DNA of 64,000 nucleotides from NCBI GenBank assembly GCA_964438505.1, contig CAYTKN010000001.1, forward strand, positions 181,509-245,508, in the 5' to 3' direction. Numbering within the stretch: the stretch's first letter is position 1; each line of letters opens with the position of its first letter. The DNA comes from an uncultured Burkholderiales bacterium. GTDB taxonomy: Bacteria > Actinomycetota > Acidimicrobiia > IMCC26256 > JACPCJ01. The position numbers and the translations under genes are program-made. This document shows, one piece after another, positions 7,436-40,114 of this stretch. The notes beneath the pieces are model-generated. The model was not told the origin of the DNA, did no database searches, and saw only the letters and a program-made list of their open reading frames with translations.

Positions 7436-8569
7436 TCAGAGGCCCGGGGTGGTGCTGCTCGGGGCCGTGTTGCTGGAAGCGTCGTCGGGGAGCGTGGGGG
7501 CCTCGGGGTCGGGCACACCGTCGCCGTCGTCGTCGGCGCAGACGCCGATGCTCCCGTGGTCGGGGTTGCTGTCCTCGCCGGTCACGAACCGCCGGCACTC
7601 GTCGATCTCGGAGCCCAGCGAGATCCCGAGCTCGTCGATGGTGTCGCCGGGGTTGGCGCATACGACCGTGTCGGATCCGCTGTCGGGTCCCTCGTCGGCG
7701 CCGATGCAGAGGCCGTTGTCGGCCGAGCGGCCGTCGTCGGGCTCGTCGGACGGGTCCTCGCAGCCCTCCTCGTTGGAGGGGTGGTCGTTGCCGAGCGACA
7801 CGTACGGCCCCGGGGCCGGGTCGACGTCGTTCACGTCCGCCCAGATGTGCGCGCAGCTCTGGTCGGTGAGGTTCACGCAGGCCGCTCCGACGGGGGTCTG
7901 GACCGAGAACGCGTTGTCGGAGGGGTCGAGCTCGGCGGGCGGGCACTCGTTGCTGCCGGTGAGGCCGTCGTCGCCGTCGCCGTCGTCGTCGTCGTTGCCC
8001 TCCTGGCAGCGGGGGCGCTGTGCGTGCTCGCCGGCCTCGTCGGCGCCGCGGTCGCACTCGGGCGTCGCGGGCGGCGTCGTGGGCGGCGCCGAGCCGTTCC
8101 CGTTCCCGTCGCCGTCGTCCTTGCAGGGGGCGTTCTCGTCGTCGTGCCAGTTGCCGGCGATGCCGTCGCGCAGCTCGGGCGTCTCGCCGCCGCCGCAGCT
8201 CCACACGCCGAACCAGCCGTCGAAGAGGGCCTCGTTGTTGCCCTCGCCGCCGTCGGAGGCGACGTGGAAGTACAGGGTCTCGGTGTCGAGCGCCACCTCG
8301 TTGGTGCCCTCGTACACGTCGTTGTCGTCGAGGCAGACGCCCGCGGCGACGCGGTCGGAGCCGTCGTCGGGGTCGGAGGAGTTGGGGCCGGCGTAGACGA
8401 AGACGCCCTCGGCGCCCACGGCGGTGTTGCCGTCCTCCGAGGTGTAGGTGCAGTCGGCCTCGGGGCTGCCGGGCTCGGTCACGTGGTCGGCCAGAGCCGT
8501 GTCCATCCCGAGTGCCGTCATCCCCGTGAGCAGGGTCAGGGACGCGATCGACGCCACCAACGCTCGCAT
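7436..8569 (-). CDS. secreted Cys- and Asp-rich protein with a thrombospondin-type-3-like Ca-binding motif
   Basis: Signal peptide MRALVASIASLTLLTGMTALGMDTALA. Many Cys, runs of D/G (DDDDGDGDDG) and CADDDGDGVPDPE. GGAGGAG RBS before the ATG. Confidence 0.6.
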   Translation of the reverse strand: MRALVASIASLTLLTGMTALGMDTALADHVTEPGSPEADCTYTSEDGNTAVGAEGVFVYAGPNSSDPDDGSDRVAAGVCLDDNDVYEGTNEVALDTETLYFHVASDGGEGNNEALFDGWFGVWSCGGGETPELRDGIAGNWHDDENAPCKDDGDGNGNGSAPPTTPPATPECDRGADEAGEHAQRPRCQEGNDDDDGDGDDGLTGSNECPPAELDPSDNAFSVQTPVGAACVNLTDQSCAHIWADVNDVDPAPGPYVSLGNDHPSNEEGCEDPSDEPDDGRSADNGLCIGADEGPDSGSDTVVCANPGDTIDELGISLGSEIDECRRFVTGEDSNPDHGSIGVCADDDGDGVPDPEAPTLPDDASSNTAPSSTTPGL

Positions 8570-11899: not shown

Positions 11900-12826
11900 T
11901 CATGGGTCGTGGTCGGGTGGGGGTCGGGTGGTGCGGCGTCCTTCGTGGTGGTGGGGGCATCGGAGTCGACCGTTGGTCTGTTCGGTGAACCCGCCGGCAG
12001 CGTGGGGGTGGGTGTGGTCGACGTCGCAGCGTTCCGCGGGTTCGTCGCAGTAGTCGTGGGTGCATTCGCGGTCGCGGACTTCGACGGCGCGGCGGGTGGC
12101 GCCGGTGAAGAGGCGTTGCTTGACGCCCACGTCGAGGACGCGGGAGGCCCCGTCGAAGACGACGCGTTCGATGTCGGCTTCGGTGAGCCACCCGGCGAGC
12201 GCGCCGGGGGTGACCACGGTGCCGTCCGCGAGCTCGCAGACCCGCCCCGCGAGGGTCGGGTAGTCGACCAGGACGGTGAACAGCGGCCGGGGCCGCTTCG
12301 CGTCGGCGGGGGTGCTGGCGGCGCGGGTGGCCATCTCGACGAGCGCGTCGAAGCGGCGCTGCGCCGGAGTGCGCGCCAGGTGCTCGACACGCGTGTCGTC
12401 GCCGTGTTGCGCTTTGGCTTGGGTCCAGTCGTCGGCGAAGAGCTCGTCGTCGATGCGGGCGAGCACCTCCGCGACGATCCCACCACGGATCGCGTCCGCC
12501 TGCCCATCGAGCACCCACGACCCGTCGAGGGTTTGGGAGACGTGCAGGCGGCGCTGCTCCTGGGCTGTGGCCGCGTCGGCTTCGACGCCGTCGGGATCGG
12601 CGAGCTGCTCCCAGTAGGCGACCGCGCGCTGCCACTGCGCGAACGTCAACTCACGGGCCTGGTCGACGAGCAACGCCTCGTCGCGGGCGAAGAGCTCCGC
12701 GCGCTCCGGGGTCGCGGCGCGCGCCAAACGCTCCACGTGCGCGACGGTGACCGCCCCCGCTGACAGCGCTTCGGCGGTGGCGGGCATCTCGCGGAGCCGT
12801 CGCGCGAGGCGCACCCGACGGCGGCC
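11900..12826 (-). repeat. inverted repeat arm A (927 bp) shared with 24111..25037
   Basis: The encoded 308 aa differ at 11 positions from copy B, and the last 168 aa are identical. The off-frame track ORFs 12060..12263 and 24674..24877 are identical. Confidence 0.85.
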
Positions 12827-13180
12827 CTCGGCTTTCGGCAACCGGCAGCGTCGCGCCAGCCACGCCCCCGCCGAGCGCGCCCGATCCACCAGCCACACCC
12901 GCCGCGCGTCCCAGCGGCCCACCACCCGAGCCTGCGCAGCCTCGAAACGGGCGCGCACCCCCTCCAACCCCACCACCAACTCCGACAGCTCGGAGGCCGA
13001 CAGCGCGTCCACATCCAACCCGGCGAGCGCATCCACCCCCGCCGACAACCCCTCCAGCACCGCCCCGGGCGCGTCGTCCGGCAGCGCCACCGGCGCCACC
13101 GGCCCGGCAGGGCGCGCGGACAGCACCGGTCGCGCCGGCGCCTCGGTTCCCTGGAGCTCGGCCTCGTCGATCACGAACAC
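11900..13180 (-). CDS. DUF222 / HNH endonuclease (REP13E12-like), full-length copy A
   Basis: GTG start. C-terminal HNH-like RDRECTHDYCDEPAERCDVDHTHPHAAGGFTEQTNGRLRCPHHH. Near-identical second copy at 24087..25037. Confidence 0.85.
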   Translation of the reverse strand: MFVIDEAELQGTEAPARPVLSARPAGPVAPVALPDDAPGAVLEGLSAGVDALAGLDVDALSASELSELVVGLEGVRARFEAAQARVVGRWDARRVWLVDRARSAGAWLARRCRLPKAEGRRRVRLARRLREMPATAEALSAGAVTVAHVERLARAATPERAELFARDEALLVDQARELTFAQWQRAVAYWEQLADPDGVEADAATAQEQRRLHVSQTLDGSWVLDGQADAIRGGIVAEVLARIDDELFADDWTQAKAQHGDDTRVEHLARTPAQRRFDALVEMATRAASTPADAKRPRPLFTVLVDYPTLAGRVCELADGTVVTPGALAGWLTEADIERVVFDGASRVLDVGVKQRLFTGATRRAVEVRDRECTHDYCDEPAERCDVDHTHPHAAGGFTEQTNGRLRCPHHHEGRRTTRPPPDHDP

Positions 13181-13402: not shown

Positions 13403-15214
13403 TCAGCGGTGGCGGGCGAGGCGGCGGGTGGCCTCCACGTAGAGCATGCGGGCGGCGAGGGCGAGGAAGAGGATCGCCACCAGGGCGGTGACGGTGGTCG
13501 CCGACCAGGGGGAGCCCGCTTCGTCGTCGGCGGAGGGGCGGTCGACCGCGAGGGGCTGGCGCGGCATCCCGGACGACCCATCCTCACCGTCGGTCGCCTG
13601 GGTGCCGCCGCTGTCGCCGCCTGCGGTCGACGCACCGCCTGGGGTGCCCGGCGTCGCCGTGCCTCCGGCGTTGCTCGTCGTGCCGCCGCCGGTGCTGCCG
13701 GTGCTGGTGTCGGTGGTGCCGCTGGTGTCGCTGCCGGTGACGAGCGAGAGGTCGCCGCCGTCGCCGCTGTCACCCCCGGAGTCGCCCGAGGTGGTCGGGT
13801 CCCAGAACGCGCCGCCGGAGGATCCGCCGGTGCTGCTGCCGGACCCGTCGCTGGTGCCGCTGTTGTCGCCGGTGCCGCCGCCACCGCTGGTCGTGTCGCT
13901 ACTCGTGCCGCCGCCGGTGCCGCTGGTGCCGCCGGTCGAGCCGCCGGAGCCACCGGTGGTCGACGAGCCGTCGTCGCCGGGTTCGGTCGAGGGCGAGGAG
14001 CCGGAGGTCGTGGTGGTCGACGACGACGAGGAGCCGGAGGTGGTCGTGGTCGTCGAGCTGGTCGAGCTCGACGAGGAGGGGCTGTCGGAGTCGGCGCGGC
14101 AGTCGGTCATGGCGCAGTAGACGTCGAGGACGCCGCCGGTGGCGACCTTGCCGTCGAGCGCGTCCACCGGGCGGACGTTGTCGAGGATGCGCGCCTTGAG
14201 CTCGCCGACCGACAGGCCGGGCTCGTGGGCGAGGATCAGCGCCGCCGCGCCGGAGACGAACGCCGTCGACAGCGATGAGCCATCCGCGATGCAGTCCTCG
14301 TTCTGGGGGGTTGTGCAGATGTTCTCGCCGGGAGCGGCGAGGTCGACCGACTTCGCGCCGTAGTTGGATCGGGTCCACAGCTCGTCGTCGTGGTCGGTGG
14401 CGGCCACACAAAGCTGGTTGGCCATTCCGAAGTTGCACGGGTATTGGGGGTCTGCGTCGTTGTTGTCGCCGGAGTTGCCCGCCCCGGTGACGACGAGGAT
14501 GCCGTGGTCGCCAGCCTTGGCGATCTTGTCCTCGAGGGTTTGGTTGTTGCTCACCCAAGCGCCCCAGGAGGCGTTGATGACGCGCACGTTCACCCCATCC
14601 TGCTTGGCGCGGATCACCCAGTCGAGCGCCTCGCTCACGGTTCCGATGTCCTTGGAGCTCCCATAGGTGACCCCCATGATCGCGGTGGTCCAATTCACCC
14701 CGGCGAGACCGGTCTCGTTGTGGCCCACGGCCCCCATCACGTGGGCCATATCGCTGCCGTGCCCGCCACCGTCGCGATTGGGCGCGCACTCCTGAGTGGG
14801 GACGTGGTAGCCGTGCGTGCCGGCGGGGCACTTGTTGACCTTTTCGGAGCTCTCCCACACGTTGGCGGCGAGGTCCTGGGCTTCGTAGTCGAGGTCCTGG
14901 TCGATGAGGCCGATCACCACCGATTTCGAGCCGGTGGTGAGCCCCCAGGCCTCCGTGGCGTTGATGTCGGCCCCGGGGGTGCCCTCGTCCCAGTCGGGGC
15001 CCATCTGGCCGGTGTTCTCGAGGGCCCACTGGTCGTCGTACATGCGGTCGTTCGGGCGGCGCTCGGAACCGGCCACCACCGCCACCGGCATCAACAGGGC
15101 GACCACAGCGGAAACCGCCAGCGTCGCAAGCCCGTGCTGGTTGCTCGGGCGCGGACCGCCACCCGACCCGCTCGGGGCCGGGTGGCGGTCGCGGGTGCCG
15201 CCTCGGCGGATCAT
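13403..15214 (-). CDS. secreted subtilisin-like S8 serine peptidase with Ser/Thr/Gly-rich stalk and C-terminal membrane anchor
   Basis: Catalytic motifs VVIGLIDQD (Asp), GGGHGSDMAHVMGA (His), INASWG (Asn), DGSSLSTAFVSGAAAL (Ser). About 190 aa of S/T/G low complexity. Terminal TM VTALVAILFLALAA. Starts 10 nt after the upstream gene stop. Confidence 0.85.
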   Translation of the reverse strand: MIRRGGTRDRHPAPSGSGGGPRPSNQHGLATLAVSAVVALLMPVAVVAGSERRPNDRMYDDQWALENTGQMGPDWDEGTPGADINATEAWGLTTGSKSVVIGLIDQDLDYEAQDLAANVWESSEKVNKCPAGTHGYHVPTQECAPNRDGGGHGSDMAHVMGAVGHNETGLAGVNWTTAIMGVTYGSSKDIGTVSEALDWVIRAKQDGVNVRVINASWGAWVSNNQTLEDKIAKAGDHGILVVTGAGNSGDNNDADPQYPCNFGMANQLCVAATDHDDELWTRSNYGAKSVDLAAPGENICTTPQNEDCIADGSSLSTAFVSGAAALILAHEPGLSVGELKARILDNVRPVDALDGKVATGGVLDVYCAMTDCRADSDSPSSSSSTSSTTTTTSGSSSSSTTTTSGSSPSTEPGDDGSSTTGGSGGSTGGTSGTGGGTSSDTTSGGGGTGDNSGTSDGSGSSTGGSSGGAFWDPTTSGDSGGDSGDGGDLSLVTGSDTSGTTDTSTGSTGGGTTSNAGGTATPGTPGGASTAGGDSGGTQATDGEDGSSGMPRQPLAVDRPSADDEAGSPWSATTVTALVAILFLALAARMLYVEATRRLARHR

Positions 15215-15224
15215 CGACGTCCGC

Positions 15225-16466
15225 TCATGCGTCGGGTGGTTCCTCGTCGGGGTGCCAGGCGATCACGGTGCCCAGCGACACGCTCGGGTTCGGTTCCTCG
15301 AAAGGTACGACCACCCGGGTGGCGGCCGAGTCGGCCTCGAGGCACAGCCACGCCTCCTGGCCGTTGGCGTAGGCGTCGACCATGTAGTCGACCGGGCCGA
15401 TCCCACCGTGGGCGATCGGGTGGTTGCCGGGCACCAGGTTGGGTGGGTCGCTCGTCGTCGTGCACGCCGTCGAGTCGCCGTCGGTCGACGGGGTCCCCAC
15501 GCCGCCGCCGGAGATCTCGGGATCGGCGCCGCTGGAGTCGATCACCAGCTTGCCGCCGTAGCCGTCGCCGCTGCCGGTGTCTTCCACGCGGGTGCACACC
15601 CACACCTCGTCGGAGGACGGCTGATGCGTGTAGAGCTTCGTGTACACCCCCTCGGTGGTGGAGTCCACGACGCGGGTCCCGCCGTTGAGTTCACAGTCCT
15701 GCGACGGCGTTCGGATGTCACTTGGTTCGAAGTCGATGAGCGGGTCGAGGTCAAGGAGCGGGTCGGTCGCGGGACTCGTCATGCTGAAGGTGCCCGTAAG
15801 TCGTTGAATGTTGGCAGCCGCCACTTCCGTCGCTTCACCAGTGAAGTCGAGGTCGACAGGAGCCACCGCCCACGCTTCATCGCAGGGAAGGTCACTCTTA
15901 TCGTCCCAGCAGACGCTCAGGTCGGTGACGACATCGAGCTCCCATGTGTCCTTACCGTCGAGGCCGACGCGCCGGTAGGTGCCCACCGCGTCAGGACCCA
16001 ACTTGGCTTCGGGGGTTAGATCACCACCGGCAAGGGATCCAGCGATGTCGTAAAAGAGGAATCGCTCGAAATTGATGCTGTCGATGGTGCCTTCCTCGGT
16101 GAGGCTTGTCCAGGATCCCGAGGTGGTGCTCCCGGTGAAACACGGAGCCTCCTCTTGAAAGCAGAGCAGTTCAATACCGAGCGGGCCACCATCACGTGTC
16201 CATACCCCGTGAACGTATTGGAATTCCTGCGCTTCCCAGGCTGTGGGCGTGCCCGTACGCTTCCAGTCACCGTCCCATTTCCCGGTAACGATCTCGGTCG
16301 TGGCCTTCACGTCGGTGGGGTCGGCCTGCGCGTCGCCGACGGGGGTCAGCGCCAGCATGGCCACCGCCAGCGTGACCGTGAGGAGTCGCCGCAGCGCATG
16401 TGACCGCCTCCTCCCCGTCGTGGTCTCCCGCCGTTCCCGCCGTGTGGTGCTTCTCGTCGTCTGCAC
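15225..16466 (-). CDS. secreted protein of unknown function, co-operonic with the S8 peptidase
   Basis: Track ORF 15225..16724 trimmed to GTG 16466. Arg-rich N-region plus hydrophobic core ...RRRSHALRRLLTVTLAVAMLALTPVGDAQA (possibly Tat-like). Mature part has 8 Cys. Visibly lower GC. Confidence 0.55.
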   Translation of the reverse strand: MQTTRSTTRRERRETTTGRRRSHALRRLLTVTLAVAMLALTPVGDAQADPTDVKATTEIVTGKWDGDWKRTGTPTAWEAQEFQYVHGVWTRDGGPLGIELLCFQEEAPCFTGSTTSGSWTSLTEEGTIDSINFERFLFYDIAGSLAGGDLTPEAKLGPDAVGTYRRVGLDGKDTWELDVVTDLSVCWDDKSDLPCDEAWAVAPVDLDFTGEATEVAAANIQRLTGTFSMTSPATDPLLDLDPLIDFEPSDIRTPSQDCELNGGTRVVDSTTEGVYTKLYTHQPSSDEVWVCTRVEDTGSGDGYGGKLVIDSSGADPEISGGGVGTPSTDGDSTACTTTSDPPNLVPGNHPIAHGGIGPVDYMVDAYANGQEAWLCLEADSAATRVVVPFEEPNPSVSLGTVIAWHPDEEPPDA

Positions 16467-16582
16467 GTGGATCCTCCCCGTGGTTCGGCGTGCTCGCCGA
16501 AGGCCCGTTCCGGCACCGCCCGGGGCCACCTGCCGTGGCGGCGGGTGCAGGTGGTGAGTGTGCAAGCACCGTTCGCAGCTTG

Positions 16583-16602
16583 CATCCCCCGATCGGGGGA
16601 TG
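16583..16602. promoter_or_regulatory. perfect 20-bp palindrome CATCCCCCGATCGGGGGATG (island motif, site a)
   Basis: 116 nt upstream of start 16466. Related copies at 18380, 20231, 21641 and 22833. Confidence 0.45.
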
Positions 16603-16736
16603 TGCCGGTGTCGGCGCGGTGGGGACACTGCTCGCGGTCCTCGCGTGGGTTCCCGAAAGCCGGATCGAGGTTCGGTTCGCACGCGATCGTCGTGTTGTTG
16701 TCGCCGGTGCGACGGTACAGACACGTCAAGGAGTTT

Positions 16737-16793
16737 TGAACCGGTTCATTTGCGCGTGTTGGGGGGTCCAACACGCGCTCTGAGCGCGTGTTG
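16737..16793. promoter_or_regulatory. palindrome TGAACCGGTTCA plus three alternating GCGCGTGTTG(G) arms (alternative hairpins or a multi-site operator)
   Basis: GCGCGTGTTGG 16752-16762, CCAACACGCGC 16768-16778, GCGCGTGTTG 16784-16793, with 5-nt spacers. Confidence 0.4.
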
Positions 16794-16848
16794 ACACCAC
16801 GAATTCGGGACGCACCATGACGGTCTCCTCGAACGCCGCGTCGGCCGG

Positions 16849-18270
16849 TCATCGGTTCTCCCGGTCCGACGCGGCCCGCTCCGCTCGCCTGGCACGCCCC
16901 CACGCCGGGTCACCCGGTGGGGGGAGCGAGTCGGGGTCGGCCCAGTAGAGGGAGAGCGCCCAGCCGAGGCTGGCGACGTCCACCGGGTTGGCGAGATCGA
17001 GGCCGCAGCGCGATTCGATCTGGCGGAGCTTGCGGCGCACCTCCTTGGTCCCCACCCCGAGCCGCCGCGCCGTGGCGGCCCAGTTCCCGCGGGTGTCGCG
17101 CAGCGCGGTGAGCGCCTCGAGGTCGCGCCGCGCCCGGTCGTGGCGGCGGGCCAGCGCGGGACCGACGACCGCGTCGACGTCGAGGACGCGGGCGTCGTCG
17201 TCGGGTTGGCTCGCCGCCCACACCAGCGCGAGGTCGAAGGCGCGGAGCACCCGGCCGCGCGGCCGGAACCGCTCCAGGACGCCGAGACGCCGGCGTAGGC
17301 CCCGGTAGACGCCGGCGAGCTCCTCGAGCGCCGCGACCGGCTCGGCGACCGCCACCAGCCCTGCCTCCTCCAGGCGCGGCGTCAGCGTCGCGACCACCTC
17401 GTCCCAGGTGCGCTCCCGCAGCGGCACCACCGCCACCACGTGCGGGTGCGGGTCCGCCACGGTCGGGGCGACCAGGCCGAGAGCGACCACCGGGGTGAGC
17501 GTCACGACCCGAGCGCGCAGGTCCCGTTCCCCCACGACGCCGCCGTCGTCTCGGGCGGCTGGGTCGGCCGGGTCACGTCCGAGCGGGGCGACGACCAGCA
17601 GGGCCGCCGGCGCCTCGAGCGTCGAGGCGCACCGCCGTGCGGCGACGGCCACCTGCTCGTCGCTGTCGAAGTCGCCGGCGAGCAGCGAGGCGAGGAAGTC
17701 GCGGCGGGCCTCGGCGGCGCGCACCGCGTCCGGCCGGTGGTAGCCGCGCTCGAACGCCGCCCACTGGGCGGTGCGGAACTCCTGGGCGTGCAACGCCAGA
17801 TGCCGGGACGCCGCCCACACGTCCACCCGCCGCGGCGACCACTCCTCGGTCAGCACCGCCAGCTCGTCGTAGAGGTACTCGAACCCCGCGGCGTTGGCGG
17901 CGCTCGTCGCCGCGTGCAACCCCTCCAGGGGCACCCCCTGGTGCGCCCGCTGCTCACCCACCGCCTCGAGCACCTCCACCTCACCGGCGGAGAGCCCGCG
18001 GCCCTCACGCAACGTCCGCAACAGCAGGCTCGCCGTGCGGGTCACCCCGAAGCGCACCGCCTCGAGCGCGTCACCCGAGAGGTTCCGGTAGCCGGGTGCC
18101 GCGTCGCGCACCGCGGCGAGGATCGCCTCGACCAACCCGTCGAGGTCACCCTCGACGCGCTCGGCCAACATCCGGCAGCACTCCGCCGGGCTCACGTGCA
18201 GCGGCACCGCCTCGCTGCCCGACGAGCGCCCCGCCGCACCCGAATCGTCGTCGTGCTTCGCCATCGCCAC
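16849..18270 (-). CDS. PucR/CdaR-like transcriptional regulator (paralog 1)
   Basis: Large N-terminal sensor-like region. C-terminal HTH WAATARRLGVGTKEVRRKLRQIESRCGLDL. The tail ...YWADPDSLPPPGDPAWG is shared with 20276..21625. Confidence 0.6.
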   Translation of the reverse strand: MAMAKHDDDSGAAGRSSGSEAVPLHVSPAECCRMLAERVEGDLDGLVEAILAAVRDAAPGYRNLSGDALEAVRFGVTRTASLLLRTLREGRGLSAGEVEVLEAVGEQRAHQGVPLEGLHAATSAANAAGFEYLYDELAVLTEEWSPRRVDVWAASRHLALHAQEFRTAQWAAFERGYHRPDAVRAAEARRDFLASLLAGDFDSDEQVAVAARRCASTLEAPAALLVVAPLGRDPADPAARDDGGVVGERDLRARVVTLTPVVALGLVAPTVADPHPHVVAVVPLRERTWDEVVATLTPRLEEAGLVAVAEPVAALEELAGVYRGLRRRLGVLERFRPRGRVLRAFDLALVWAASQPDDDARVLDVDAVVGPALARRHDRARRDLEALTALRDTRGNWAATARRLGVGTKEVRRKLRQIESRCGLDLANPVDVASLGWALSLYWADPDSLPPPGDPAWGRARRAERAASDRENR

Positions 18271-18379
18271 CTCCCCGACGTCGATGGCCCTCTACTGAGG
18301 GACACGCAGACGAGCCGAAAAAGTGTCGGTGTGAACGCGGAAACGTGCGCCGCCGTCGTTCCCGGATCGCGGAATCTGA

Positions 18380-18395
18380 GGGGAATCGGGGGACG
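18380..18395. promoter_or_regulatory. half-site of the island palindrome (minus-strand reading CGTCCCCCGATTCCCC, site e)
   Basis: About 112 nt upstream of the regulator start at 18270, inside a lower-GC divergent promoter region with A6/T7 runs. Confidence 0.3.
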
Positions 18396-18564
18396 CGAGC
18401 CGGCGGCGCGGGGGCGCAGCGGGCAAAAAATCGGCCTCCGAGCAAATTTTTTTCGTTTCGACCGTCACATTTTCGGGACTTCTGCGTGTACCCGAGGGGA
18501 GGAACCGCGCGGAGGCGGAAAATTCCGCGCGCAACGTGGTGGGTCGACCACCGCACGTAATGAC

Positions 18565-19848
18565 ATGCCGGGGATGCCGGGGGAGCACACGATGAGGGGT
18601 CAGCACAGACGAGACGAGGTCGCGGCCCGCCGCGACGGCGAAGGCGACAGCAGCCACGAGCACGGTGCTGCCGGTGCTGCCGGCGCGGTCGGCGCGCGCG
18701 CCGTGACCGTCGAGGAGCTCTGGCGCCGCCACGGACGGGAGCTGGAGCGACTGGCATCACGGGTGCTCGACGACACCCGGGCGGTCGACGCTGCCTGCTA
18801 CGGGGTCATGCTCCGCGCCGGCGAGTGGCTCGAGACGAGCCGCCGCGCCGTTCCGCGTGAGACCGCGCGGTGGTGGCTGCGGGATCTCTGCGCGGACGTG
18901 TGCGGGGAGATCCTCGCCGATGGCGTCCCTTCCGCCTGGCTGACCGACGACCCGCTCCCCGAAGCCCTGCCCACCCGGGTGCGCTCCGCGCTGGGCTTCC
19001 AGGCGGCCCGGCGGCGCCTCGATCGCGTCGAGGCCATGGCCCCCACGGAGGGGCCGGTCGCCCGCGCCCGGCAGCGCCAGCGGGCACGGTGGCGCGAGGC
19101 GCTGGAGGAACAGCTCCGGGGGCTTCGCACCCTGGTGCCCCTCGCCCTGCTCGCCCAGCTCGCCCGGAAGGCCTGGGACGGCGCCGAGCGCGCCGGGCGC
19201 GACGTCTGGCGGCGGGTGGAGGTCGCCGCCTCGACGGCGATGCCTCCCGGACAGCGGGTCGCCGGGCTGCTCAGCGCCGGCCCCGGATTCCCCGAGGCCG
19301 CGGCGGTGGTCACCGCGTTCGTCGCCGTCGGCGTGGCAGCACCCGAGCCGCCGCCGCGGGCCACGCCGATCGACGGCCGGGAGGTCGCCTCGACGCTCGT
19401 GGAGCGCCGTGAGGAGCGGACGGCCGCCTCGGACGCGGCCTCGTCGGAGGCCCTGACACACCCCGACGGTGACGAGCTCGCGGCCTCGACACCGTCACCT
19501 CGACCGGAGGCGGACGGGGACGCGTCGCCCGAGCCGGATCCTGGACCCGGGCTCCCGACGCCGGGACCGGACGCGGAGGTGGACGCTGATCCGGGCGGGG
19601 CGGCGGATGAACCCGTAGAGAAGAAGCACAGAAGCCACGGGACCAAATACCAGATTGCGAGTCACCGCGCGGGTGTCGATGTCGACGGCGACGGCGAGGA
19701 CGAGGTGTGGGTGAAGGGTTCAGTCTTCAATTTCCACTGCCGCGCTGATCCCAGTCGGCGCGGGCCGGTCAGCAGTCAGGTCTGCCCGGTGCTGGCGGAC
19801 TCCGAGGTCGTCGAAGAGTCCGAGCTCATCACTGAGGAGGAGGGCTGA
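18565..19848 (+). CDS. membrane protein with a sigma-70 region-2-like N-terminus, function unknown
   Basis: ATG 18565 inside track ORF 17440..19848. The segment VEELWRRHGRELERLASRVLDDTRAVDAACYGVMLRAGEWL...ARWWLRDLCADV resembles ECF sigma region 2. I see no region-4 HTH. One TM (AAAVVTAFVAVGVAA), then a P/D/E-rich extracytoplasmic tail. Confidence 0.5.
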   Translation: MPGMPGEHTMRGQHRRDEVAARRDGEGDSSHEHGAAGAAGAVGARAVTVEELWRRHGRELERLASRVLDDTRAVDAACYGVMLRAGEWLETSRRAVPRETARWWLRDLCADVCGEILADGVPSAWLTDDPLPEALPTRVRSALGFQAARRRLDRVEAMAPTEGPVARARQRQRARWREALEEQLRGLRTLVPLALLAQLARKAWDGAERAGRDVWRRVEVAASTAMPPGQRVAGLLSAGPGFPEAAAVVTAFVAVGVAAPEPPPRATPIDGREVASTLVERREERTAASDAASSEALTHPDGDELAASTPSPRPEADGDASPEPDPGPGLPTPGPDAEVDADPGGAADEPVEKKHRSHGTKYQIASHRAGVDVDGDGEDEVWVKGSVFNFHCRADPSRRGPVSSQVCPVLADSEVVEESELITEEEG

Positions 19849-19893
19849 CCGATGGGCTCCTCATGCCACGGGGTGGCGACGACAGGGGGCTGC

Positions 19894-20169
19894 TCAGATA
19901 TCGACCGTGCAGACGAAGATCTCCCACGAGATGCCGAACGCCTCGCCGGATTTCGGCCCGTAGCTCTCGGCGCTGCAGTCCCAGTCGTCGCAGTAGTCGC
20001 GGATGGTCTCGGTGGTCGTCGAGCCGTCCTTGCCGAGCTCGACGTACCCACAGTTGGTCGGATGGTGATTGGTGGCGTCCGCCGGCGAGCCCGAAAAGCC
20101 AATGCCGAGGGCTGTGGCCACCGCGATCAGCGCCACCAGGGCGCGCGCCCATATCTTCCGAATCTCCAT
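19894..20169 (-). CDS. small secreted Cys-rich protein (about 60-aa mature peptide)
   Basis: ATG 20169 inside ORF 19894..20223, preceded by GAAGGAGG. Signal peptide MEIRKIWARALVALIAVATALGIGFSGSPADA. Mature part has 4 Cys. Clearly lower GC. Confidence 0.5.
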   Translation of the reverse strand: MEIRKIWARALVALIAVATALGIGFSGSPADATNHHPTNCGYVELGKDGSTTTETIRDYCDDWDCSAESYGPKSGEAFGISWEIFVCTVDI

Positions 20170-20230
20170 ACCGAGCCTGCCTCCTTCGACGAAGTGCGAA
20201 GACATGTTAGGAGAACATTGCACTCATCTA

Positions 20231-20249
20231 CATCCCCCAATCGGGTGAA
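20231..20249. promoter_or_regulatory. island motif site b (CATCCCCCAATCGGGTGAA, i.e. the reverse complement of TTCACCCGATTGGGGGATG)
   Basis: Lies between the divergent starts 20169 (-) and 20276 (+). Confidence 0.4.
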
Positions 20250-20275
20250 CAACACAAAAAATCTCGGGAGCGACC

Positions 20276-21625
20276 GTGAGTAGGGGCCGGGACACATCCG
20301 AAGAGCGGCTCGGCTGGATCGGCGTCGCGACGATGATCGTCCTCCGGGAAGAGGTCGACGACGTCGTCGCCGGCGTGGTCAAACGGGTCCGCTCGGCGTC
20401 CCCCGAACCGCGACGAGCCGTCTCCGTGGTCGTCGAGAGCCCCGCGTACACCGCCTTCGTCCGCCGCGTCGCCTCCATCGCCGGCAACGCGCTCGCCGGC
20501 CGGTCCGAACGGGTCGCCGAGGAGATCGTCACCGCGTGCGACGAGGCCATCGACCTCGTGACCGACGGCGCGTCGACCGACCTCGTCCGCCGCAGCATCC
20601 ACGCCACCACCGCCGTCGCGCTCGACCGAGTGCTCAAGCACGTCGACTCCGAGCGCGACCACCCGACCGGCGCCCGGGTGCGATCGGCCGTCGGCGCGCT
20701 CAACGACTGCGAGTTCGAGCTGCTCGCAGCCTTCGAGCGCGCCGTGCGCGCCGTCGAGGACGACGAGGGCACCCGAGCGCAGCGCCTCCGCGAGTCGTTC
20801 CTGCGCGCCGTGCTCGAAGGGCCCGTGCGCGACCCCCTCGCCACCACACGCCGCGGAGAGCGCCTCGACCTCGACCTCACCCCACCCCTCGGCCTCGTGC
20901 TGCTCGTCGACGCGGCCTCCCGCAACTCCCGCAACTCCCGCAAGTCCCGCGACCCGTCCACACCCGAGTCGTTCGAGGAGCGCGTCCAGCGATGCGCGCG
21001 CCGCCCCGACCACCGCCTCCTGCCACCCGTGCTCGTCGACCCCGACCCCGGCGAACCGCTCTGCGCGGTGCTCGCCGTCCCCGCCTACCGCCCTCCGCTG
21101 GCCGCCGAGGTCGACGAGCAGCTCACCGCCGCCTGTGACGAGCTCGGGCTGCTGGCCGTGCGCGCCTCCGCCGCCGACCTCGCGGAGGCCCCCGTGCTCC
21201 ACCATCGCCTCCGCCTCCACGGCCCCCTCCTCGAGCGCTGCGCACGACACGTCGGTGCCTTCACCACCCTCGACTCGCTCTTCCCCTACCGCCTCGTCCA
21301 GGAGCTCACCAGCGCCGAGACCGACGAGCTGCTCCGTGAGCAGGTCGGCCCGCTCGTGACGACCGTCCGCCACGCACGCGAGCGGGTGGCGACCTGGAAG
21401 CTCCTCGTGCGCGAGCGCCTCACCGACCCCGAAGCCGCCGAACGCCTCGGCATCGGGATCAGCGCCATCTCCAAGCGCCGGCGGGTCATCGAGGCGATCC
21501 GCGGCGACCTGAGCACCGGCCTGTTCCGCTCCCAGACGGCCTCCTACGCCTACGAGCTCTGGGAGGACGACCTCCCGCCCCCCGGCGACCCGTGGTGGCG
21601 CGGCGAGGAATCCACCGGGGGGTGA
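20276..21625 (+). CDS. PucR-like transcriptional regulator (paralog 2)
   Basis: C-terminal HTH PEAAERLGIGISAISKRRRVIEAIRGDL. The tail ...YELWEDDLPPPGDPWWRG matches the tail of 16849..18270. Internal SRNSRNSRKSR arises from a 9-bp tandem repeat. Confidence 0.55.
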   Translation: MSRGRDTSEERLGWIGVATMIVLREEVDDVVAGVVKRVRSASPEPRRAVSVVVESPAYTAFVRRVASIAGNALAGRSERVAEEIVTACDEAIDLVTDGASTDLVRRSIHATTAVALDRVLKHVDSERDHPTGARVRSAVGALNDCEFELLAAFERAVRAVEDDEGTRAQRLRESFLRAVLEGPVRDPLATTRRGERLDLDLTPPLGLVLLVDAASRNSRNSRKSRDPSTPESFEERVQRCARRPDHRLLPPVLVDPDPGEPLCAVLAVPAYRPPLAAEVDEQLTAACDELGLLAVRASAADLAEAPVLHHRLRLHGPLLERCARHVGAFTTLDSLFPYRLVQELTSAETDELLREQVGPLVTTVRHARERVATWKLLVRERLTDPEAAERLGIGISAISKRRRVIEAIRGDLSTGLFRSQTASYAYELWEDDLPPPGDPWWRGEESTGG

Positions 21626-21640
21626 GAAGACCTCGACTTC

Positions 21641-21659
21641 TTCACCCGATTGGGGGAAG
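21641..21659 (+). promoter_or_regulatory. island motif site c (TTCACCCGATTGGGGGAAG)
   Basis: 109 nt upstream of start 21769. The following bases GCAACGCGCGGGGC resemble those after site d. Confidence 0.4.
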
Positions 21660-21768
21660 CAACGCGCGGGGCTTCTCGAAAACACTGTGAAAGTGACGAG
21701 TTCCGGCAATTCCCCGGCGCGAGAACGGCGATCTCCACCCCTCGACCGCGCCGCGACCGCTCCGTAGC

Positions 21769-22725
21769 GTGCCCGCCATGGACGACGACATGACACCCCG
21801 AGACCCTCACCCGGACCCTCCGATGGACGCGGTTCCGGCCCGCAACGGCCACCGCTTCGTGAGGACGCGGGAACGCCCCTCGGTCGACGAGCGGATCACC
21901 GACGCGCAGCGGCTCTGCACGCAGGTCTACGACCGCGGCGGGTCGCTCCACGACCTCGACCCGATCGACTCGCTCGACACGCTGGCGACCATGGGCGACG
22001 CCGAGGGGGCGATCGAGGCGATCGAGCGCATGCGCGCCGCCGGGCTGACCGTCGATCCCGACGACCACCTCATGGTGCTCGTCAGCTACCACGTCCACGC
22101 CCGCGGCGAGGACGCCGAGCGCTACCTGCGAGGCCTCCCACCGGACGAGCTGACCACCGCGCACCTCGCCCTCGTCCTCTCCGCGTACGCCATCACCGGC
22201 CGCGCGGACGAGGCCGAGGCGCTCTACCTCGACTACGAGGACTGGCCCATGGCCGACGGCGAGGACTGCCACGTCGCCCTGCTCTACGCGTTCAGCTTCG
22301 TCGGCGAGCCCCGGCGCGCCCGCGAGTGGTTCCGGACCGTCACCGAGCGTGACGAGCAGCTCGCGACCCCCCGGATGCTGGTCGCCCTCGTGCAGGCCCA
22401 CTCCAGCCCCGAATCCCTCGACGAGCTCCGCGCCCTGCGCGACGAGCTCGACGAGGAGACCCGCCGTGACCCCGAGGTGGCGGGCTCGCTCGTCAGAGGG
22501 TTCGCCTGGGCCGGCGACCCCGAGCGCGCCGAGGAGCACCTCCCCGACGCCCTCGCCGGCCTCGGCCCCGACGACGAAGAGGACGGCCGGCACCTCGTCG
22601 TCTGCTGCATCGGCGCATACCGGTCGTCCGCCGACGAGGACATCGACCGGCTGCTCGCCATCGCCGAGGACGCGGGGGTCGGGCTCAGGGACCCCAGGCT
22701 CACACCCGGGTTCCGAGAGCCCTGA
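21769..22725 (+). CDS. acidic helical-repeat protein (TPR/PPR-like, about 35-aa repeats), paralog 1
   Basis: Repeating helix-pair units, e.g. HLMVLVSYHVHARGEDAERYLRGLPPDELTTA / HLALVLSAYAITGRADEAEALYLDY / HVALLYAFSFVGEPRRAREWFRTV / MLVALVQAHSS.... No signal peptide. Confidence 0.5.
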   Translation: MPAMDDDMTPRDPHPDPPMDAVPARNGHRFVRTRERPSVDERITDAQRLCTQVYDRGGSLHDLDPIDSLDTLATMGDAEGAIEAIERMRAAGLTVDPDDHLMVLVSYHVHARGEDAERYLRGLPPDELTTAHLALVLSAYAITGRADEAEALYLDYEDWPMADGEDCHVALLYAFSFVGEPRRAREWFRTVTERDEQLATPRMLVALVQAHSSPESLDELRALRDELDEETRRDPEVAGSLVRGFAWAGDPERAEEHLPDALAGLGPDDEEDGRHLVVCCIGAYRSSADEDIDRLLAIAEDAGVGLRDPRLTPGFREP

Positions 22726-22832
22726 CCTCGCCGCGAGATCCCACCCCCTCGCGTTCCGCTGTGAGCCGAGCCTGTCGACGAGCGGCGGGGCGCGGGGGGT
22801 GGGAACCAGGGGTCGGAATGTCGTCGATCTCG

Positions 22833-22851
22833 TTCACCCGATCGGGGGATG
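22833..22851 (+). promoter_or_regulatory. island motif site d (TTCACCCGATCGGGGGATG)
   Basis: 119 nt upstream of GTG 22971. Confidence 0.4.
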
Positions 22852-22970
22852 CAGCGCGCAGGACCCCGTGATCCGGCCCCGAGAAGGGCGGATTCGCGCA
22901 CCCGGCCCGACCGACAAGTGGTGGTCTCCCCCCTCGAACGAGCCCGCTCGCCTGCGTAGGGTCCCCGTAC

Positions 22971-23873
22971 GTGACAGCGTCGCAGCGTGAAGCCCGCCAG
23001 GCAACCGGGCACCGTGAGCACCGCGAGAGGACGAGCGAGATGGCGGGCGACGAAGCCGACGAGCACGAAGAGCCACCTCGCCGGCCGCGCCTCAGCGACG
23101 GGCGAGCCAAAGAGCGGACCCTGCGGGCCCGCCTCCGCACCTGCGCGGTGGTCGGCGACGTCGACGGCGCGCGCGCCGCCGTCATCTGGATGGAGCGCTT
23201 GGAGTACCCGGTCGGCGACGAGGAGCACCTGCTGGTGCTGATCGCCCACCAGGCGAGCGACCGCGCCGTGGAGGCCGAGGAGTACTTCCGCTCCATCCCC
23301 GAGGACCAGCGGACCATGGCCCACTTCCGCTCGGTGATGGCCACCTACACCTTCAAGCGCCGCCCCCACGACGTCGAACGCCTCTACCTCGAGCTCGAGT
23401 CGACCCCCGACGCCCTTGACGACGACTGCCGCAGCCTGCTCCTCTCGGCGCTCGCCTTCGAGCACGAGGACGCCCGGGCGCGGGTGTGGTTCCAACGCTT
23501 CGAGCAGCAGTCCGACGAGCCGCCCGGCCCGGGGCTCGTCGCGCACCTGATCAACGCCCACGCCTACCCCGGAGCGCACGACCAGCTCGTGGCGATCCAC
23601 GACAGGCTGGACGAGGAGCTGCTGCACGAGCCCGAGGTGGCATCCACGATGGTGCGCGCCCTCGTCGCGGCGGGTGACCCCGAGCGCGCCGAACGCTGTC
23701 TCCGCGACGCCCTCGCCGTCGTCGAGGAAGACGAGGAGCGCGAGCGGCTCGTCGGCGACTGCATCCGGGGTCGCCGGCGCGACCGTGAGGCCGTCCGCCG
23801 GCTGCTCGCCACCGCCGAGGAAGCCGGTGTCGACGTCGAACACCTGGGGTCAGGCTTCGGCATCCTGCCCTGA
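22971..23873 (+). CDS. acidic helical-repeat protein (TPR/PPR-like), paralog 2
   Basis: Same repeat architecture and colinear similarity to 21769..22725 (HLLVLIAHQASDRAVEAEEYF..., GDPERAERCLRDALA vs GDPERAEEHLPDALA). The start is uncertain; ATG 23040 is the alternative. Confidence 0.5.
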   Translation: MTASQREARQATGHREHRERTSEMAGDEADEHEEPPRRPRLSDGRAKERTLRARLRTCAVVGDVDGARAAVIWMERLEYPVGDEEHLLVLIAHQASDRAVEAEEYFRSIPEDQRTMAHFRSVMATYTFKRRPHDVERLYLELESTPDALDDDCRSLLLSALAFEHEDARARVWFQRFEQQSDEPPGPGLVAHLINAHAYPGAHDQLVAIHDRLDEELLHEPEVASTMVRALVAAGDPERAERCLRDALAVVEEDEERERLVGDCIRGRRRDREAVRRLLATAEEAGVDVEHLGSGFGILP

Positions 23874-23918
23874 CCCGAGCGCGGGGGACGAGCGCGGGGG
23901 AGGGCGGACGACGGCGGC

Positions 23919-24069
23919 TCACACCTCGATCACGTCGAGGCCTGCCACCGAGACGTGATCACGGTCCTGGGTCACGATCGGGACCTCCAGGGCGAGCGCG
24001 GTGGCCGCGATCCACGAGTCGTTGATTGGCACGCGCTCGCCGGCATCTCGGAGGAGGACGTTGTTGTCA
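23919..24069 (-). pseudogene. C-terminal remnant of a PIN-domain (VapC) toxin gene
   Basis: The minus strand reads ...SDNNVLLRDAGERVPINDSWIAATALALEVPIVTQDRDHVSVAGLDVIEV*, a typical VapC C-terminus. The N-terminal two-thirds are missing. The break coincides with the 5' end of HNH copy B. Confidence 0.6.
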
Positions 24070-24086
24070 GAGGCGGGTGCGAACAT

Positions 24087-25037
24087 GTGTTCGTGATCGA
24101 CGAGGCCGAGGGCCGCCGTCGGGTGCGCCTGGCGCGGCGCTTGCGTGAGATGCCCGCCACCGCCGAAGCACTGGCGGACGGTGCGATCACGGTGGCGCAC
24201 GTGGAGCGTTTGGCGCGCGCCGCGACCCCGGAGCGCGGGGAGCTCTTCGCCCGCGACGAGGCGCTGCTCGTCGACCAGGCCCGTGAGTTGACGTTCGCGC
24301 AGTGGCAGCGCGCGGTTGCCTACTGGGAGCAGCTCGCCGATCCCGACGGCGTCGAAGCCAATTCGGCCGCAGCCGAGGAGCAGCGCCGCCTGCACGTCTC
24401 CCAGACCCTCGACGGGTCGTGGGTGCTCGACGGGCAGGCGGATGCGATCCGCGGTGGGATCGTCGCCGATGTGCTCGCCCGCATCGACGACGAGCTCTTC
24501 GCCGACGACTGGGCCCAAGCCAAGGCCCTCCACGGCGACGACACGCGTGTCGAGCATCTGGCGCGCACCCCCGCGCAGCGCCGCTTCGACGCGCTCGTCG
24601 AGATGGCCACCCGCGCCGCCAGCACCCCCGCCGACGCGAAGCGGCCCCGGCCGCTGTTCACCGTCCTGGTCGACTACCCGACCCTCGCGGGGCGGGTCTG
24701 CGAGCTCGCGGACGGCACCGTGGTCACCCCCGGCGCGCTCGCCGGGTGGCTCACCGAAGCCGACATCGAACGCGTCGTCTTCGACGGGGCCTCCCGCGTC
24801 CTCGACGTGGGCGTCAAGCAACGCCTCTTCACCGGCGCCACCCGCCGCGCCGTCGAAGTCCGCGACCGCGAATGCACCCACGACTACTGCGACGAACCCG
24901 CGGAACGCTGCGACGTCGACCACACCCACCCCCACGCTGCCGGCGGGTTCACCGAACAGACCAACGGTCGACTCCGATGCCCCCACCACCACGAAGGACG
25001 CCGCACCACCCGACCCCCACCCGACCACGACCCATGA
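24087..25037 (+). CDS. DUF222 / HNH endonuclease (REP13E12-like), copy B with a 330-bp in-frame internal deletion
   Basis: VFVIDEAE|GRRRVRLARRL... joins codon 8 to codon 119 of copy A. The HNH C-terminus is identical to copy A. The upstream extension of the track ORF (23955..) is antisense to the VapC remnant. Confidence 0.75.
   Translation: MFVIDEAEGRRRVRLARRLREMPATAEALADGAITVAHVERLARAATPERGELFARDEALLVDQARELTFAQWQRAVAYWEQLADPDGVEANSAAAEEQRRLHVSQTLDGSWVLDGQADAIRGGIVADVLARIDDELFADDWAQAKALHGDDTRVEHLARTPAQRRFDALVEMATRAASTPADAKRPRPLFTVLVDYPTLAGRVCELADGTVVTPGALAGWLTEADIERVVFDGASRVLDVGVKQRLFTGATRRAVEVRDRECTHDYCDEPAERCDVDHTHPHAAGGFTEQTNGRLRCPHHHEGRRTTRPPPDHDP
24111..25037 (+). repeat. inverted repeat arm B (927 bp) shared with 11900..12826
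   Basis: See arm A. The short 5' segment 24064-24110 also matches about 13157-13196. Confidence 0.85.
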
Positions 25038-26821: not shown

Positions 26822-27011
26822 CCGGCGGGTGTTGCAGGGGAGTGGTAGCGGGAGGAGAGGGGAAGTGCCCGCAGCAGGATTCGAACCTGCGCACCCGGCT
26901 CCTCGGAGGATGCTGCCCGGTGCGGAGAGCACCGGCGGGTGTTGCAGGGGAGTGGTAGGGGAGGAGAGGGGAAGTGCCCGCAGCAGGATTCGAACCTGCG
27001 CACCCGGCTCC
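26822..27011. repeat. direct duplication (81 and 80 bp, period about 109 bp) covering the 3' half of tRNA-Arg plus 43 nt downstream
   Basis: Unit 1 at 26822-26902 and unit 2 at 26932-27011 are identical except for one 1-nt indel. Unit 2 runs into the intact tRNA. Confidence 0.85.
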
Positions 27012-27046
27012 GGAGGCCGGTGCTCTATCCCCTGAGCTATGCGGGC
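26975..27046 (-). tRNA. tRNA-Arg (anticodon CCG)
   Basis: Reverse complement is GCCCGCA TA GCTC AGGGGATA GAGC A CCGGC CTCCGGA GCCGG GTGC GCAGG TTCGAAT CCTGC TGCGGGC A. This is a full cloverleaf of 72 nt, and CCA is not encoded. Confidence 0.9.
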
Positions 27047-39721: not shown

Positions 39722-40114
39722 ATGGCTGGTGAGCAGATCCTCGTCATCGAGGACGAGGCCCACATCCAGGAGCTCCTGCGCTTCTACCTCGAGGGCGAGG
39801 GCTTCGCCGTCAGCACCGCCTCCACGGGCGCCGAGGCGGTCGAGGCGCTCGCGGCGCCGGCTCCCGACCTGGTGATCCTCGACGTGATGCTGCCCCACAC
39901 CGACGGGTTCGAGATCCTCCAGCGGATCCGCGCCGCGCAGGGGTGGGGGCCGGTGCCCGTCCTCATGCTCACCGCCAAGTCCGGCGAGGACAGCGTCGTG
40001 GCCGCCTTCGAAGCGGGCGCCGACGACTACGTCACGAAGCCGTTCCAGCTCGAGTCGCTCCTCGCCCGAGTCAAGCGCCTGCTGCGCGCCGGTGGGCGGG
40101 CCGGAGACGGTTGA
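39722..40114 (+). CDS. single-domain response regulator (receiver only)
   Basis: QILVIEDE...DLVILDVMLP...VLMLTAK...DDYVTKPF. Confidence 0.85.
   Translation: MAGEQILVIEDEAHIQELLRFYLEGEGFAVSTASTGAEAVEALAAPAPDLVILDVMLPHTDGFEILQRIRAAQGWGPVPVLMLTAKSGEDSVVAAFEAGADDYVTKPFQLESLLARVKRLLRAGGRAGDG

Follow-up and report, generated by a model that had tools for sequence, protein, structure and literature searches.

A conserved C-tract/G-tract palindrome as a putative operator of a PucR/MabR-type regulator in a rare actinobacterial module

Introduction

Few PucR/MabR-type regulators have known target sites. The PucR-type regulator GabR of C. glutamicum uses inverted repeats immediately upstream of the -35 element of a divergently transcribed operon (PMC7652997), MabR assembles into dimers and tetramers, in keeping with a palindrome whose half-sites are spaced by one helical turn (PMC11617747), and AdeR, PrcR, MabR and GabR all use inverted repeats (PMC13599513). 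Here we describe a GC-rich palindrome that recurs in a 64,000-nucleotide (64 kb) stretch of contig CAYTKN010000001.1 (positions 181,509 to 245,508; hereafter the window), where two of its copies flank the gene for a PucR/MabR-type regulator that we call reg2. The locus resembles GabR, B. subtilis PutR/PrcR and AdeR in combining a regulator that has a C-terminal PucR-type helix-turn-helix with an inverted-repeat operator, which in those systems measures 17-24 bp (PMC7652997, PMC13599513). The repeats of GabR overlap the regulator's own promoter, and this is the arrangement predicted for one of the sites described below, W4.

Results

Four copies of the palindrome are present in the window, all of them intergenic and all inside 6.3 kb (16585-22849). 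W1 (site 1; 16585-16600, TCCCCCGATCGGGGGA) is a perfect palindrome of 20 bp including its flanks. W4 (site 4, or site A; 20233-20248, TCCCCCAATCGGGTGA, which reads TCACCCGATTGGGGGA on the minus strand) lies between the gene for a small secreted protein and the divergent reg2. W2 (site 2, or site B; 21642-21657, plus strand, TCACCCGATTGGGGGA) is found 16 nucleotides (nt) past the reg2 stop codon, and W3 (site 3, of the site B type; 22834-22849, plus strand, TCACCCGATCGGGGGA) stands upstream of the second of two genes for PPR/TPR-like proteins. The element measures 16-20 bp, with arm centres about 10 bp apart, and follows the GC-rich 16-base consensus TCCCCCG-NN-CGGGGGA, which in the source genome mostly takes the form (G)TTCACCCGATYGGGGGATG.

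The window has a G+C content of 72%, and we set the chance expectation with dinucleotide-preserving shuffles (n = 100). The window contains four matches with at most two mismatches to TCCCCCGATCGGGGGA against 0.17 expected, and none of the 100 shuffles reached four. A symmetrised weight matrix built from 16 sites and applied to the whole window gave W1-W4 scores of 29-32 bits (30.0 bits for W1); the next best position scored 14.9 bits and lies in a coding region, at 16910, and the scan found no palindrome site in the other ~58 kb. An earlier note on this DNA had reported these four sites, at coordinates and with sequences that we confirmed, and had noticed none in the core of the window, as the matrix bears out. 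It had also counted a fifth (18380-18395), which exists as written; we rejected it because it is a half-match in which one arm alone agrees, scores below 9 bits and is unconserved in the orthologous region of a related locus, L122. A literature search with the motif string returned no relevant paper.

Homologues of the proteins encoded around the sites are very rare, numbering four for a second regulator (reg1), two for a protein designated p418 and five for reg2 among 5.8 billion clusters. The order p418-like (plus strand), ~90-amino-acid (aa) gene (minus), reg2 (plus) and PPR/TPR-like gene (plus) recurs in five other loci, L122, L124 (the same as L125), L126, L127 and L128, where the reg2 and p418 homologues show 40-59% identity and where orthologues of the small gene, of 90-94 aa, occupy the same place in L122, L124, L126 and L128. 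The palindrome is found in these five loci with reg2 homologues at two orthologous positions: site A, between the small gene and reg2, is kept in L122, L124, L126 and L127, and site B, 4-28 nt past the reg2 stop codon, in L124, L126, L127 and L128. The C5 and G5 arms are retained while the four central bases vary (GATC, GGTC, GAAC, GACC, AATC). On an Acidimicrobiia contig, L091, GTTCACCCGATCGGGGGATG directly precedes a p418 homologue.

Further copies occur in L050, which shares contig CAZTOV010000001.1 with L124; the record is labelled an uncultured Burkholderiales metagenome-assembled genome, and its gene content looks actinobacterial. Its three sites (17-32, 207-222 and 1947-1962) are separated from the reg2 homologue downstream by 12-14 kb. 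Two precede an M23 peptidase gene, one with class A spacing (defined below) and one in the leader, and the third, also with class A spacing, precedes a mutator-type transposase-like gene.

The centres of the two operators that bracket reg2 are separated by 1409-1418 bp in four genomes (window 20240/21650; L124 9950/11362; L126 8577/9987; L127 90/1508), a near-constant gap that may simply reflect conserved gene length. The reg2 side of site A often carries a second, degenerate C-tract/G-tract palindrome, such as GGGGGAATCTCCCCC or TCCCCCGGATCGAAGGGGA, at a variable distance of 12-27 nt (window 20262-20270; L122 1841-1855; L124 9981-9992; L126 8613-8631; L091 922-932), which could be an auxiliary operator over the reg2 promoter.

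Measuring the distance from the end of each palindrome to the nearest TANNNT separated the sites into two classes. In class A, the hexamer follows at exactly 23 nt in W4, L122, L124, L126 and L127, always toward the small gene, and at 22 nt in L091 and two of the L050 sites (L050a and L050c); in L091 the box is TACCGT, and a GTG start codon follows 7 nt later. In class B, the hexamer follows at 107 nt in W2, W3, L124, L127 and L128 and at 108 nt in L126, is the only TANNNT within 200 nt at all six sites, and has TCGACC or a close variant exactly 17 nt upstream (TCGACC-17-TASSGT). The neighbouring distances, which serve as an internal control, vary from 27 to 60 nt between site A and the reg2 start and from 4 to 28 nt between the reg2 stop and site B, and the class B spacer itself retains only 33-49% identity.

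In the window, the predicted -10 box of the class A site W4 is TAACAT (20204-20209, minus strand), 23 nt after the palindrome. The predicted promoter of PPR/TPR-like gene 1 spans 21742-21770 on the plus strand (-35 TCGACC at 21742-21747, 17-nt spacer, -10 TAGCGT at 21765-21770) and that of PPR/TPR-like gene 2 spans 22934-22962, also on the plus strand (-35 TCGAAC, 17-nt spacer, -10 TAGGGT at 22957-22962), which places their -10 boxes 107 nt after W2 and W3, respectively. Gene 1 (21778-22725, plus strand) starts with an ATG 7 nt after its -10 box and gene 2 (22971-23873, plus strand) with a GTG 8 nt after its own, so that the mRNAs downstream of W2 and W3 are probably leaderless. W1 has no TANNNT within 200 nt on either strand; its candidate -10 box would be CACACT (16557-16562, minus strand), which lies 22 nt after the site and is weaker than TANNNT.

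If the predicted -10 boxes occupy -12 to -7, the centre of a class A site falls near -43.5, and the site abuts the -35 position, where these promoters show no conserved hexamer; the centre of a class B site falls near -127.5, a further 84 bp (eight helical turns) upstream. Relative to these predicted boxes, the class A geometry would fit the PucR-type placement beside the target -35.

This geometry revises the spacing proposed in the earlier note, which had taken 109-119 nt from site to start codon as common to four units. Its arithmetic is correct, and the constant quantity is instead the distance to the -10 box, 107 nt at sites 2 and 3. The similar 116 nt at site 1 is a coincidence, because site 1 does not share the geometry of sites 2 and 3, and site 4 belongs to a separate class, 23 nt from a -10 box that faces the small gene. 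Nor are the downstream coding sequences all unrelated, as had been stated, because PPR/TPR-like genes 1 and 2, which follow sites 2 and 3, are paralogues (39% identity).

The class B spacer also contains two conserved blocks whose positions are fixed: GAnTTC lies some 41-46 nt past the palindrome, and GAA(A/G)(C) comes about 20 nt after that (window 21698-21726; L124 11410-11440). In L124 they form the inverted repeat GTTTC-N18-GAAAC, and a second factor could bind at these blocks, between the distal operator and the promoter.

The gene bracketed by W4 and W2, reg2 (20276-21625, plus strand), encodes a PucR/MabR-type regulator. It is paralogous, at 28% identity, to reg1 (16849-18270, minus strand), a PucR-type regulator with the domains RsbRD_N and HTH_30, the latter matched in Pfam with an E-value of 5.9e-9. 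Pfam did not detect HTH_30 in reg2, the similarity being too low; the homology of reg2 to the reg1 family extends along the whole protein (hhalign 97.8%, 392 columns). The best PDB matches of its AlphaFold model (predicted local distance difference test, pLDDT, 73) are the two PucR-type structures solved so far, 3ONQ and 9F80 (Rv2242/MabR), with a Foldseek probability of 0.99, and the N-terminal domain matches globin-like sensors. Its architecture comprises a globin-like N-terminal domain, a GGDEF-like middle domain and a C-terminal helix-turn-helix, followed by a conserved C-terminal tail, LPPPGDPWW.

The sites co-occur with reg2 in the window, L122, L124/L125, L126, L127 and L128. L124 and L126 have no reg1 homologue and keep both sites, and no site was found in L001-L003, which carry reg1 homologues (56-67% identity) in other contexts. 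The earlier note had named the PucR-like pair as the probable regulators of a common operator; of the pair, only reg2 has the support of co-occurrence with the sites. We infer that the binder is probably reg2 alone, because no other regulator co-occurs with the sites and because two of them bracket its gene. We set reg1 aside as an improbable binder; its four homologues lie in other contexts without the motif, and it is missing from the site-keeping L124 and L126.

The gene map, drawn from third-position G+C analysis and Pfam, places the class A target next to reg2, the gene for a small secreted Cys-containing protein of 91 aa (19894-20169, minus strand), and beyond it p418 (18592-19848, plus strand), a conserved module member without a Pfam match. 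The presumed target unit of W1, downstream of that site on the minus strand (13403-16466), consists of a gene for a secreted protein with no family match (15225-16466, minus strand) followed by a subtilase S8 gene identified by Pfam (13403-15214, minus strand). PADLOC and NCBIfam searches of the island proteins gave nothing except a sub-threshold mycosin-like match of the S8 protease. The rest of the window carries core actinobacterial genes (argS, hom, rpmE, prfA and the atp operon).

The cluster is enclosed by a pair of oppositely oriented DUF222 genes (11900-13180, minus strand; 23955-25037, plus strand), a tRNA gene lies 2 kb past it (26975-27046, minus strand), and in L126 a DUF222 gene likewise adjoins the module. 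The DUF222 pair and the tRNA gene are consistent with an accessory or mobile region.

Discussion

Judged by comparative sequence, the palindrome is a genuine conserved cis-regulatory site that defines a small local regulon. This agrees with the mini-regulon and the common operator for a dimeric DNA-binding protein put forward in the earlier note, the latter suggested by conservation in five other loci, a fixed promoter geometry and asymmetric variants that weaken the hairpin. With moderate confidence, we favor the reading that the palindrome is the operator of the PucR/MabR-type reg2, acts in two promoter classes and controls an accessory module made up of p418, the small secreted protein, reg2 and the PPR/TPR-like gene or genes. 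The factor would bind as a dimer or tetramer and would most likely be reg2, and in the source genome the secreted-protein/S8 protease unit would also belong to the regulon via W1. At class A sites, that is W4 and probably W1, the operator would end 22-23 nt before the -10 box and the factor would most likely act as an activator that touches RNA polymerase directly; at W4 it would also sit over the start of its own divergent gene, which would lead to autoregulation. At the class B sites W2 and W3, exactly 107 nt separate the operator from the downstream -10 box of a putatively self-sufficient TCGACC-17-TASSGT promoter, which is most likely modulated from a phase-locked distance, via an oligomer or an intermediate factor. 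The sites, their conservation, their spacing and the family and fold of reg2 are observed, and the sign of regulation, like the transcription start sites and the identity of the binder, is inferred.

A bolder version, which we consider a rather long shot, casts the module as an undescribed envelope-signalling unit in which a tetrameric factor at -43.5 and -127.5, eight helical turns apart, would activate the -35-less promoters and loop to the canonical one. A looping tetramer would possibly also bridge the two sites that bracket its own reg2 gene.

Several observations weigh against assigning the palindrome to reg2. The -10 boxes and transcription start sites are predictions, the role of an operator at -127.5 is speculative, and W1 has a weak -10 candidate only. 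Site A was not found in L128, and no reg2 is visible on the L091 contig, which is only 3 kb long. The reg2 model is of moderate confidence (pLDDT 73; Foldseek E-values 0.02-0.03), and the co-localisation of reg2 and sites could reflect its neighbours being targets of another factor. The same palindrome is, moreover, evidently read by other proteins elsewhere. We scanned metagenomes for the palindrome followed by 22-23 nt and TASSST, a pattern that imposes the spacing, and obtained at least 120 loci (L129-L248). Among the matches listed, at least 17 sites precede near-leaderless operons for a HisKA_3-type kinase and a NarL-type regulator, at least 8 precede ABC-2 ATPase genes, and no reg2 or p418 homologue appears.

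These loci also frame the most serious competing explanation, a genuine operator read by a remotely encoded regulator, for example a NarL/LuxR-type regulator of a cell-envelope two-component system, with the island genes as part of its regulon. The identical palindrome and register are used elsewhere and the motif class is therefore not unique, which keeps a remote regulator in contention, although we regard it as unlikely. Speaking for it, besides the kinase/NarL and ABC-2 sites, a NarL-type regulator is encoded in at least about 35 of the metagenome loci listed, the start codon at kinase/NarL loci falls 6-13 nt after TASSGT (for example L131 3933-3977, L228 4350, L210 4727 and L156 447), and the whole looks like an autoregulated two-component/ABC regulon that uses an identical palindrome. 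Peptidase genes (M23, S8 and HtrA-like) recur downstream, and the island targets are likewise secreted or envelope proteins.

By a rough estimate, however, the number of metagenome loci is about the chance level for the pattern, so that the recurring gene families alone are informative. A scan of species genomes with a 19-mer and no -10 constraint gave at least 117 single hits in very diverse taxa. Among the matches listed, TANNNT lies at offset 22/23 in 6/97 oriented sites versus at most 2 at any other offset, an enrichment that favors a remote regulator; only L091 and L050 are related to the island, and the matches share no common adjoining regulator family. Against a remote regulator, tblastn with a NarL-type regulator found no DNA-binding member of that type in the window, L124, L126 or L050, the sole match in the window being a receiver-only protein (39722-40114). 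The sites cluster tightly around reg2 in every genome that has reg2, and none lies in the other 58 kb of the window. Sites that directly precede a regulator gene usually indicate autoregulation, and the gene in that place here is reg2.

The species-genome scan also recovered an asymmetric 19-mer, TTCACCCGATYGGGGGA(A/T)G, with conserved flanks at orthologous loci of Nostoc (L031, L032, L048, L053, L060, L063, L082, L085, L089, L095 and L099) and of the picocyanobacteria Synechococcus/Cyanobium (L012, L025, L029, L030, L036, L054, L081, L086, L101 and L103), unrelated to the island.

It is improbable, in our view, that the binder is instead another product of the module, either the membrane-anchored p418, with its N-terminal domain resembling sigma region 2, or reg1 at W1. 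The case for p418 draws on L091, where a class A site, followed at 22 nt by TACCGT and 7 nt further on by GTG, stands directly before the p418 homologue in a manner suggestive of autoregulation, and on the p418 model, in which a three-helix domain is predicted with very high confidence (aa 40-120, pLDDT 94-98). The PDB structures that match this domain best are extracytoplasmic function (ECF) sigma factors (SigL, sigmaE region 2, SigW, SigK and AlgU), and a four-sequence profile matches SigL with an E-value of 0.16. These sigma-like matches are nevertheless weak (E-values 0.1-2) and vanish with a 19-sequence profile, Pfam finds nothing, and the gene has no site upstream of it in the window, L122, L124 or L126. 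Sigma region 2, furthermore, reads -10 elements rather than a 16-bp palindrome, and a sigma -35/-10 spacer would be shorter than 22-23 nt. For reg1, W1 lies 249 nt downstream of the gene and occurs only in the genome that has reg1; set against this, the loci of reg1 homologues lack the site, and the sites persist in islands that have no reg1.

Two related candidates were rejected. The sequence evidence for p418 as a sigma factor is insignificant, leaving the fold resemblance alone, and an ECF sigma promoter with the motif as its -35 element needs 16-17 nt, compared with the 22-23 or 107 nt observed. The -10 boxes are of the form TANNNT, as for housekeeping-type sigma factors.

The p418 family comprises about 20 clusters among 1.84 billion representatives (relatives P0006 and P0012-P0029). 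After the three-helix domain come long helices, one transmembrane helix and a C-terminal extracytoplasmic beta domain with two invariant cysteines, and the modelled protein may be a membrane-tethered sigma-like protein. Upstream of the p418 orthologues, the block TCTCAYTCGTG(T)ACCCTG is kept in all four loci, and in the window and L122 the palindrome GGTGGGKCGACCACC lies just before the p418 ribosome-binding site (block and palindrome together: window 18470-18500 and 18540-18560; L122 130-170 and 195-215; L124 about 8290-8330; L126 about 6990-7030). The M23 peptidase gene of L050 is likewise preceded by GTGTACC. The upstream block may be a second regulatory element of the module.

A nucleic-acid hairpin that would serve downstream of reg1, reg2 and PPR/TPR-like gene 1 as a terminator or as a stem-loop that stabilises RNA is very improbable, because the distance to the -10 box is fixed while the intervening sequence is scrambled, a pattern that favors a protein operator. 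In its support, perfect copies form 6-8 bp GC stems of -12 to -18 kcal/mol, W1, W2, W3 and all class B orthologues lie shortly past a stop codon (4-28 nt after reg2), a T/G change in L128 would still pair in RNA, and many of the unrelated genomic 19-mer matches are the tips of longer terminator-like hairpins. W2, W3 and W4, however, carry a conserved A/G mismatch in the promoter-distal arm and fold no better than shuffles, while their promoter-proximal GGGGGA arm is kept. In five genomes the genes on either side of site A are transcribed divergently, compensatory changes were not observed, and a terminator would not predict exactly 23 or 107 nt to a downstream -10 box. No T-run follows any of the sites, a terminator scan of 16000-24000 found no terminator-like site, Rfam 15 covariance models matched only tRNAs in the window and in 18 motif-bearing loci, and RNAalifold detected no conserved RNA fold in the class B spacer beyond the palindrome itself. 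Because of the mismatches, the divergent position of site A and these negative searches, the evidence points to a DNA operator rather than an RNA hairpin or terminator, although the class B sites after reg2 may have a secondary terminator role.

With reg2 as the likely reader of the palindrome, comparative sequence alone yields a sharply defined operator, two promoter architectures of exact spacing and a short list of targets. The module is a rare and uncharacterised actinobacterial one, and its function, along with that of a regulator of globin-GGDEF-like-HTH architecture, becomes directly testable; the phase-locked 107-nt site would offer a clean natural case of PucR/MabR-type action at a distance. 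General concepts of gene regulation are unchanged by the finding.

The C-tract and G-tract of the palindrome resemble operators of the CsoR/RcnR type, and no member of that family was matched among 10 island proteins with Pfam and NCBIfam. Class A sites recall the class II activator sites centred at -41.5, such as those of CRP/FNR, in that a palindromic dimer site abuts or overlaps the -35 of promoters that have no conserved -35 hexamer; they differ in their predicted centre, near -43.5/-42.5, and in the protein family. The metagenomic NarL/ABC-2 promoters share with the island the identical TCCCCCG-NN-CGGGGGA, 22-23 nt to TASSGT, often a leaderless start and a position before the regulator's operon, with the qualification that this spacing was imposed by the search pattern and has its independent support solely in the enrichment of the unconstrained scan. 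Their adjacent regulator, in contrast, is of a different family that combines a receiver domain with a GerE-type helix-turn-helix, and homologues of the island proteins are absent from these loci.

Among described proteins, MabR (Rv2242; 9F80) and B. adolescentis BAD_0249 (3ONQ) are the best structural matches of the reg2 model. MabR shares the three-part build of a non-haem globin-like N-terminal domain, a GGDEF-like domain and a helix-turn-helix (PMC11617747), and the arms of the island palindrome, about 10 bp apart, match its half-sites one helical turn apart. It differs in that its operator is AT-rich (GTTTTGT...ACAAAA) and controls the FAS-II operon, and the LPPPGDPWW tail belongs to reg2. 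Compared with GabR, PutR/PrcR and AdeR, the island operator is unrelated in sequence, with C5-N4-G5 arms, each promoter has one repeat instead of two adjacent ones, and the predicted binding would control secreted or repeat proteins rather than a catabolic operon. The 107-nt class B register is not reported for those regulators (PMC7652997, PMC13599513), and none of the PucR-type papers compared (PMC7652997, PMC11617747, PMC13599513) describes a precedent for class B sites at about -127.5. Collectively, these comparisons place the locus beside the PucR/MabR-type systems, and what is unusual about it is its strictly conserved 107-nt register.

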